DNA from: Ophelia neglecta
Taxonomy: Eukaryota
Assembly: GCA_965285935.1 (NCBI GenBank)
Contig: OZ260664.1
Span: 90,334,001 to 90,398,000, forward strand
Direction: 5' to 3'
Length of the DNA: 64,000 nucleotides
Under the pieces are notes generated by a model. The model was not told the origin of the DNA, searched no databases, and saw only the letters and a program-made list of their open reading frames with translations. Below are positions 1 through 1,304 of this stretch, piece by piece. The position numbers and the translations under genes are program-made. Positions within the stretch are counted from its first letter, which is position 1. Every line of letters begins with the position of its first letter.

Positions 1-675
1 GATATGAGACAAGGAGAGGCCTGGAAGGGTCGAACGAGATCAGGGGTAGCAGACGAAGATAGGCTTTTGGTATCATTCGAGTTCGAAGGGATAGAGGAGT
101 GATATGAAGGAACAGAAAAGATCGAGGGAGAGTACTTACTAGCTCAACTTACAATCATTGTATAAGGAGAATGAGGATACAAATCATCTTACATTTCTCT
201 CGGCTGGGAGATTAGTAGTATAGAACGACCAACATTACATTGTTTATTGTGGTCGGTAAATATAGATTGCTCTGTGTGGGAAGGGACTGAGCTACTACAG
301 GCAGCTGGGAATGGCCGATTTAATTCCATAAGGGCACATTACATTAGGGACGAGTTGAGCTGGACCTTCAAGGAGGATGTTTTCTGCAGGGGGGAGACTA
401 ATTTCCAAGATGCTGGGTCAGGGTGCAGTTAAAGCCACAATGTAGCAATAGGCCGCCTGCCAGACTAACTGGTGGCGAAGCCGACAGACTAGACAGCATA
501 GTAGACTAGGCAAACCAATTTCATCGCATCTCATGCAATCACACGAGACCCACTGTGTTTTCGTACTAGTTCTTTTGGGGTTTTCAGGGGTGAATTTATG
601 AAATTGTGTTTGCATAAGGAAGAGAATGGAATAATCTACCGGACATGCCTAATACGCATGCGCAAAACCGTAAAA

Positions 676-719
676 TGCCCTATGCACCAAGAAGTGATAT
701 TTCTTCAAAATTGCGTGTC
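676..719 (-). promoter_or_regulatory. Putative editing-complementary sequence (ECS) pairing with the Q/R site and 5' splice site of the M2 exon
   Basis: Plus-strand tgccctatgcaccaagaagtgatatttcttcaaaattgcgtgtc is an inverted near-copy of 1296-1340. In the pre-mRNA it gives 34 Watson-Crick plus 6 G-U pairs over 45 nt (hand alignment). Function is inferred. Confidence 0.7.
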
Positions 720-1304
720 GCTAATTGGTCATTCTACTGTGACGTACGCATTTTACGGCCGCGCATGTGTACTAACTCAACTCACATCCTCAGAAGCTTG
801 ATGTCAATAGGATACATAATTTGATCCAAAAGGCCGATAATCTTTGGTCGGTGCAGACAGACATGTGCAGTTTTGGAACCAAAATAGACGTGCATAAACT
901 GCGAGGAAGTAGGATAATGTTTAAAGTTTTTTTTGTGATTTTTTTTCGCCCAGTTTTGACTGTCCATAGGCGAGGAGAGGAGGAAAGATAGTCGAACTGT
1001 GCACCAGAAACTAAGATTAATGAAGGCGCAGAGAAAGGAGATAGACAGCAAAAAAGGCCAAACTGGGTTAAATAAACCTGGCAAACCGAAGCAAACATTA
1101 ATTATATTTTGTTTAGAAAACTGAATGGCTGTTGAAAGGAAATGAAATGTGCTGAGCGGGAGCTACTCATCTACTTTATAATTCATCATGTAACGGGATA
1201 TAGGTCAAGTACTGAGCCCATGCTGGCGACCTCAAATGCGTACAACGTGCTCACGTCACACCACATAACGTCATCATGTGACGTCACAGGCATGGGACAC
1301 AAAC

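Follow-up and report, generated by a model that had tools for sequence, protein, structure and literature searches.

Among recoding events, the Q/R edit is the textbook case. In those parts of PMC5654063 and PMC3553965 that describe vertebrate GluA2 (GRIA2), the edited codon is served by an intronic ECS, a second intronic stem (the editing inducer element) lies across an internal loop, and the splice donor is held inside the structure. The same part of PMC5654063 places the GluK2 ECS at a distance of 1885 nt. For Drosophila paralytic, the sections of PMC4299485 on its intronic structure describe an ECS/donor-complementary sequence/hairpin pseudoknot, in which a donor-sequestering helix titrates editing and delays splicing while accessory intronic elements tune editing. 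The docking-site/selector structures of Dscam (PMC6071210) and ATE1 (PMC7797038) have, in the portions of these papers that concern them, one strand with mutually exclusive partners, and arms that resemble each other as if duplicated. Q/R editing and flip/flop are stated to have arisen in vertebrates in the relevant part of PMC13520880. A literature search covering main texts and few subscription papers turned up no account of Q/R editing in annelids or of an ECS-caging arm, and neither 'annelid' nor 'teleta' occurs in the main text of PMC9989829.

The intron element described here shares with GluA2 the codon, the receptor family, the intronic ECS, the second stem across an internal loop and the placement of the donor inside the structure. 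It is unlike GluA2 in that the gene is annelid, the ECS lies 0.6-2.1 kb away (a spacing closer to that of GluK2), the second stem of 21-23 bp is long-range, and a third strand competes for the strand S on which that stem is built. In the window species the second stem has 21 bp, compared with 25-54 bp for the editing inducer elements in PMC5654063. The helix over the donor and the accessory intronic parts recall paralytic; however, the accessory elements there add pairings, whereas annelid arm B would remove the ECS from the exon. As in the docking-site/selector structures, a single strand has several exclusive, conserved partners and the arms resemble each other. In contrast, both annelid partners lie in one intron around the ECS, with none found near the twin exons downstream, and the output would be editing and donor use as opposed to exon choice; the element does not belong with the selectors at mutually exclusive exons. 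Our preferred reading, to which we assign a probability of roughly 0.45, is that this three-strand element is a kinetic RNA switch that would set predicted Q/R editing against splicing.

An annelid AMPA-receptor gene with a genomic Gln codon

The window is the whole stretch of 64,000 nt that was analysed (G000:C7:90334001-90398000 of a 762-Mb genome, with G000:C7 the contig label used below). It contains an AMPA-receptor gene of annelid type on the minus strand, to which all element and exon coordinates refer. The pore exon (1305..1660) encodes the end of S1, M1 and the M2 pore loop, with Pfam matches to Lig_chan and Lig_chan-Glu_bd, and its top named protein matches are annelid (Lamellibrachia, Hirudo; 86%). 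The element sits in the 3.25-kb intron that follows, the next exon lying 3.25 kb downstream. In a gene tree of 14 rows, built without vertebrate or arthropod rows and after 9 of the 23 chosen proteins had dropped out, the receptor groups with those of Lamellibrachia, Owenia and clitellates, separate from the 'DIEPR' paralogues, with a support of 92/91 that falls below the tool's starred level.

The Q/R position of the pore is encoded as Gln in the genome (1328..1330, by translation), as in an ADAR Q/R substrate. The candidate edited adenosine, 1329, is paired with U in 4/4 sequences. The G located 3' of this adenosine (1328, facing 687) is mismatched with another G in three of four species, while the remaining one has a G-U pair there. 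Judged on its deaminase exon, an ADAR2-like gene is present in the organism, this exon matching human ADAR2 with an E value of 1.5e-98 versus 3.5e-50 for the other deaminase entry. None of nine other pore exons read in the genome, in a survey that was not exhaustive, belongs to an Arg-pore paralogue. Two tandem AMPA paralogues located 50 and 80 kb downstream (G000:C7:90284813-90285013 and 90254837-90254986) have a Gln pore and short introns lacking the element. Five near-identical paralogue copies (L108 and L110-L113, G000:C7:98.2-99.0 Mb) have an altered pore-loop peptide.

Two arms around the ECS share one docking strand

In transcript order the strands are A (1243-1219), a spacer, S (767-744), ECS (719-675) and B (678-657). 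The exon end and splice donor (1296..1341) provide the 5' strand of the exon:ECS duplex, with 27 expected pairs in the ensemble and a further 7 over the intron start. In the branch that follows, a lineage-specific insert (1245..1294) that does not align to L013, L014, L015 or L021 forms two local hairpins (1257-1294 and 1245-1256, p = 0.91 and 0.88). The earlier note had drawn two hairpins within 1245-1284: the small one, 1256-1245, is recovered, while the larger is negligible in the register proposed (p = 0.009) and instead forms as 1288-1279/1273-1264. Translated text resembling the insert was seen by eye in the read-through tails of P0007 and P0131.

Arm A (1219..1243, with GCAUG at its end; 22/25 positions identical in L013, L014, L015 and L021) is the upstream partner of S (744..767; 22/24 positions invariant in four sequences). 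The pairing of 744-767 with 1219-1243 pointed out previously is present, with a 10-nt core and 21 bp in the fold, and loops out the spacer (768..1218, 451 nt here). This conserved A:S stem lies across the branch loop beside the predicted edited stem, where an editing inducer would be placed. Arm B (657..678, again with GCAUG at its end) is the downstream competitor for S. The local stem suggested for 653-678 is likewise found, as 668-678/748-758 (11 perfect pairs) and 657-663/761-767 (7 pairs), and in the window species B:S pairing reaches to about 649. A second GCAUG (644..648) follows directly; it lies 4-15 nt past B in 4/4 sequences, in differing contexts. Pairing of B with S would enclose the ECS (675..719, including its donor-complementary part; populated in the ensemble and conserved with covariation) in a loop, put at about 70 nt earlier and computed here at 65 nt. 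The proposal of two mutually exclusive folds sharing S is supported, and is strengthened by the conservation described below. Each arm has private pairs on S: the last four bases (744-747, S bases 21-24) pair only with A, while the invariant base 13 is bulged in A:S and paired in B:S.

A further stem, between 737..745 and 1281-1289, had been proposed to extend the structure. The 9-nt complementarity is perfect, but the stem is unpopulated in the ensemble (0.06 bp) and lies outside the favoured fold: forcing it costs +3.1 kcal/mol, it overlaps both adjoining helices, and it is not kept as such in orthologues. It loses to the larger branch hairpin in its other register.

When partner energies of S were computed along 21.5 kb of transcript, A and B were the best two (-31.6 and -31.3 kcal/mol; next -25.5), and the two arms are also the top partners in 3/3 orthologues. 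A selector role for S at the twin exons is ruled out, the best other partner being -25.5 kcal/mol or weaker over this 21.5-kb stretch, which includes them. Among 250 random 24-mers from the window, none had partners of <= -29 kcal/mol on both sides within 700 nt, and one had such a partner on one side. Shuffling S 100 times gave a best energy of -32.0 kcal/mol upstream, yet only -25.4 downstream. For arm B, S is the best partner by 7-12 kcal/mol. The region as a whole folds with z = -2.84 (0/20 shuffles as good), and 500-1295 has no Rfam match at E <= 1.

A DNA search with 640-790, which gives lower bounds, and pattern searches for B and A (1 and 2 mismatches allowed) each found one place in the genome. 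The terminal inverted-repeat look and palindromic words of 653-771 had suggested a MITE or chance repeat. We give this next to no credence: one match per search differs from the many dispersed copies of a MITE, and single copy together with orthologous conservation already refutes it. The word at ~43080, offered as a possible repeat copy, is a 2-mismatch match, one of three where 0.94 are expected (8/100 shuffles gave as many), and is within chance. Next to it, at 43089-43134, lies a palindrome of 19 perfect base pairs around an 8-nt loop; this palindrome has no relation to S or B. The S pattern has no match in viral contigs.

The element is found with genomic Gln

A metagenome scan returned at least 80 loci; among those listed, the pore exon could be read in 76, of which 62 have genomic Arg and 14 have Gln. 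Four of the listed Gln loci (L013, L014, L015 and L021; 88-92% protein identity) all carry arm A. S, ECS and B are carried by the three whose contigs reach far enough (L013, L014 and L021), the L015 contig ending 1259 nt into the intron. Among the listed loci the orthologues with all parts thus number three, two of which are close (92% identical exon). Compared with the window, these three have an exon identity of 77-78%, with 48-60 of ~88 synonymous codons changed, and the rest of the window's intron does not align to L013, L014, L015 or L021. The A-S spacer (549, 1862 and 2006 nt in the orthologues) cannot be aligned between sequences; the S-B loop measures 60, 66 and 67 nt.

The element was not found in the other 10 listed Gln loci (75-81% identity), nor in the 62 listed genomic-Arg loci, which are interrelated rather than independent and some of which cover little intron (from 107 nt). 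When a covariance model was run over 90 loci, the three on which it had been trained were the only ones to score on the sense strand. In open frames reading into the intron, the 11-nt core of A occurs in 7/21 Gln versus 0/22 Arg orthologues (Fisher p 0.004, from rows that are not independent and tails cut at stops), and it was seen by eye in four further read-through tails. Over 533-691, a contig of another organism (organism A) differs by 11 listed substitutions, which all fall within 567-641, plus one unlocated difference. The intron past arm B (533-641) is ~90% conserved in organism A and does not align to the distant orthologues. In sequence terms, the competing stem is genuine and old, and among the loci compared it is confined to orthologues with a genomic Gln.

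Arg is present at the first or both Q positions in the DNA of many annelid relatives (L017-L088; P0009, P0013, P0023, P0053). In Lamellibrachia one copy encodes Gln and another Arg, and the full arm-A core is missing from Gln read-through tails of this type; such loci look as if duplication replaced editing. Among the best 120 matches of the protein searches, no spliced Arg product of an element-bearing orthologue was seen: the spliced Arg proteins found are clitellate or the Lamellibrachia Arg paralogue, and genomic Arg loci of the same type exist.

Substitution patterns in S and its partners

All 19 B:S pairs are kept in 4/4 sequences, 17 being invariant, two changed on one side and none on both. 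In terms of individual cells, 76/76 are paired, versus 25-55% in slid controls. For A:S, 21/23 pairs hold in all four sequences, the two exceptions being pairs lost in the window species. S itself varies at two positions only, and on the transcript strand both changes are G-U wobble-compatible with A as well as with B; the sense-strand duplexes are stronger than the antisense ones by 2-6 kcal/mol in 8/8 comparisons. This substitution pattern fits a strand with two obligatory partners, short of covariation proof. As neither A:S nor B:S shows a double-sided compensatory change in the four sequences, pairing is unproven by covariation and protein-binding constraint could contribute.

It is conceivable that A and B are kept mainly as protein-binding sites, with B a copy of A, B:S incidental, and A:S acting as an inducer of editing or a bridge in the RNA. 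GCAUG, which we take to be an RBFOX-type motif, stands at the end of both arms and recurs after B in 4/4 sequences, and GCATG occurs at 2-7 times simple expectation in the element-bearing introns. The absence of double-sided change in B:S and the negligible share of B at equilibrium point the same way. On the other hand, arm B changes are confined to its 3-nt insert, variable in 2/3 orthologues, while all 19 paired positions are invariant, and B pairs with S in a register of its own that includes the base bulged in A:S. We therefore consider this explanation improbable, and retain the kinetic switch.

The check for covariation across orthologues proposed earlier finds it in the exon/donor:ECS helix; for B:S, 0/19 pairs are changed on both sides. 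Intron position +9 reads C-G, A-U, A-U and G-C across the four sequences, and exon +4 is A-U in some and G-C in others, a double-sided change. In the element-bearing loci, synonymous change in the last 12 codons of the exon is 4/110 (4%) versus 216/399 (54%) upstream; the same exon tail in four genomic-Arg groups shows 20-41%. Q/R editing itself we infer from the structure and the phylogenetic pattern. A duplex that covers the donor, with covariation, could instead govern splicing through donor occlusion or regulated intron retention and leave the Q/R adenosine, whose editing is a prediction, unedited. This fits poorly with a constraint that extends 12 codons inward from the exon end, a little beyond the Q/R codon, and that is lost along with the intronic arms in genomic-Arg loci; splicing alone would not lead one to expect such a pattern. 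A role in splicing only is accordingly rather improbable too.

Computed folds bury the donor with arm A and free it with arm B

The partition-function check envisaged earlier, run over 630-1360, populates exon:ECS and A:S (21 bp), while B:S stands at 0.0 bp. The exon:ECS duplex, imperfect and longer than 20 bp, contributes -42 to -52 kcal/mol in the four species. On their own, A:S (-30 to -32 kcal/mol) and B:S (-28 to -31 kcal/mol) differ by 0.4-4 kcal/mol, so that fold A is favoured because the exon:ECS duplex tips the balance. In the window species, with the exon attached, fold B lies above fold A by 14.2 kcal/mol at 37 C, 19.0 at 15 C and 20.4 at 4 C. In orthologue folds, for which the L013 and L014 spacers were replaced by a short linker, it is 25-28 kcal/mol uphill at 37 C and 25-40 across 4-37 C.

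These values bear on the suggestion that temperature tunes editing. The near-equality of the two duplexes taken alone, and the narrowing of the gap with heat, would suit an equilibrium switch between the folds. However, fold B is uphill by 14-20 kcal/mol in the window species and by far more in the orthologues throughout 4-37 C, and more so in the cold, so that an equilibrium thermoswitch is unsupported. The computed populations do not cross within physiological temperature as those of an RNA thermometer would, and we regard such a switch as a very remote prospect.

In the window species, fold B wins in two cases only: with both the donor and the whole of A blocked (p = 0.79), or with the intron folded alone (p = 0.74); in intron-only orthologues, fold A is still 10-15 kcal/mol ahead. 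Blocking the GCAUG of A alone does not flip the fold, which rules out RBFOX-site blocking by itself as a trigger. Opening the donor costs 9.3-11.3 kcal/mol in fold A versus 2.5-4.6 in fold B in 4/4 species. Taken together, the energetics suggest that A is an editing-type end state with the donor buried, and B an ECS-caged, donor-free state reachable kinetically or with help.

A proposed kinetic race between editing and splicing

A co-transcriptional, kinetic or protein-assisted route would be the workable version of editing tuning. With S paired to A, the ECS is predicted to be zipped onto the Q/R codon for ADAR and the splice donor to be buried; with S paired to B, the ECS is predicted to be caged and the donor left free, so that the transcript would splice unedited. 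B would act as a short-range, presumably metastable trap (loop 60-67 nt) before the long-range A:S helix (0.45-2 kb) closes. The four bases of S with A as their sole partner would stay free in the B loop, a likely conserved toehold for B-to-A conversion, while no conserved toehold serves B in the reverse direction. The product would be Gln when splicing proceeds from state B, and Arg after conversion to A. A race between conversion and splicing, in which U1 and RNA-binding proteins would tip the outcome, would determine the ratio of Gln to Arg and therefore, it is proposed, calcium permeability. In favour of this kinetic switch, donor accessibility differs between the folds in all four species. 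Counting against it, A is transcribed before S with a ~90-nt head start over B, and the equilibrium ensemble contains no fold B as long as the exon is attached.

The order of transcription suits instead the main rival, a release model predicting near-complete editing. Here A would form first, and after editing and helicase unwinding B would trap S and the ECS, so that the duplex cannot re-zip and the donor passes to the spliceosome. The donor is 6-8 kcal/mol cheaper to open in fold B, and a crude edited-plus-U1 model narrows the B-A gap from 14.0 to 5.2 kcal/mol in the window species; furthermore, the section of PMC3553965 on splicing reports that edited GluA2 pre-mRNA splices ~3.8 times better. 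The same model nevertheless leaves a gap of 13-15 kcal/mol in the orthologues, S in L013/L014 offers B no toehold of its own, and the exon holds the 5' end of B in fold A. Release after editing is thus unlikely, if worth weighing seriously.

B could also serve as a folding chaperone that prevents mispairing of S and the ECS, presents the ECS in a loop and so promotes editing. A local stem that A can displace through the free S bases, with A the strongly favoured end state, agrees with this. It is at odds with the exon and A having already been made when S emerges, and with a B loop that is itself predicted to fold; we judge it very unlikely, and the kinetic switch remains our preferred reading. 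With such a competing arm, a recoding site would carry its own small off-switch, one that couples editing to use of the donor, and the arm would help to guide the design of tunable ADAR substrates.

Possible convergence with vertebrates

More broadly, and with rather less than even confidence, we propose that polychaetes evolved AMPA-receptor Q/R editing independently of vertebrates, together with a decoy-arm RNA switch caging the ECS, so that one gene could supply calcium-permeable or impermeable subunits on demand. Genomic-Arg lineages would have discarded the switch, and the twin exons would represent a second convergence. Editing at the Q/R codon, if it takes place, would stop calcium from passing through the receptor. 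An ECS that annelids conserve alongside genomic Gln and lose alongside Arg would make Q/R editing a convergent invention, and the Gln/Arg contrast would provide a natural setting in which to ask why an animal edits a codon instead of mutating it.

The flip/flop-like twin exons lie on the minus strand at G000:C7:90330243 and 90328037 (L003), ~3.8 and 6.0 kb past window base 1. Both are intact, equal in length and AG/GT-bounded, and at the flip/flop position each codes for the same S2 segment. The exon end at window-relative position ~-2852 (G000:C7) is taken by us as the counterpart of the vertebrate R/G site; a single 120-nt fold over it gave no compact hairpin. Within the window, the upstream intron has an imperfect 18-bp hairpin near the donor of the preceding exon (2412-2451), and tandem-repeat arrays at 24000-24950 and 38820-39240 are visible as repeating translations.
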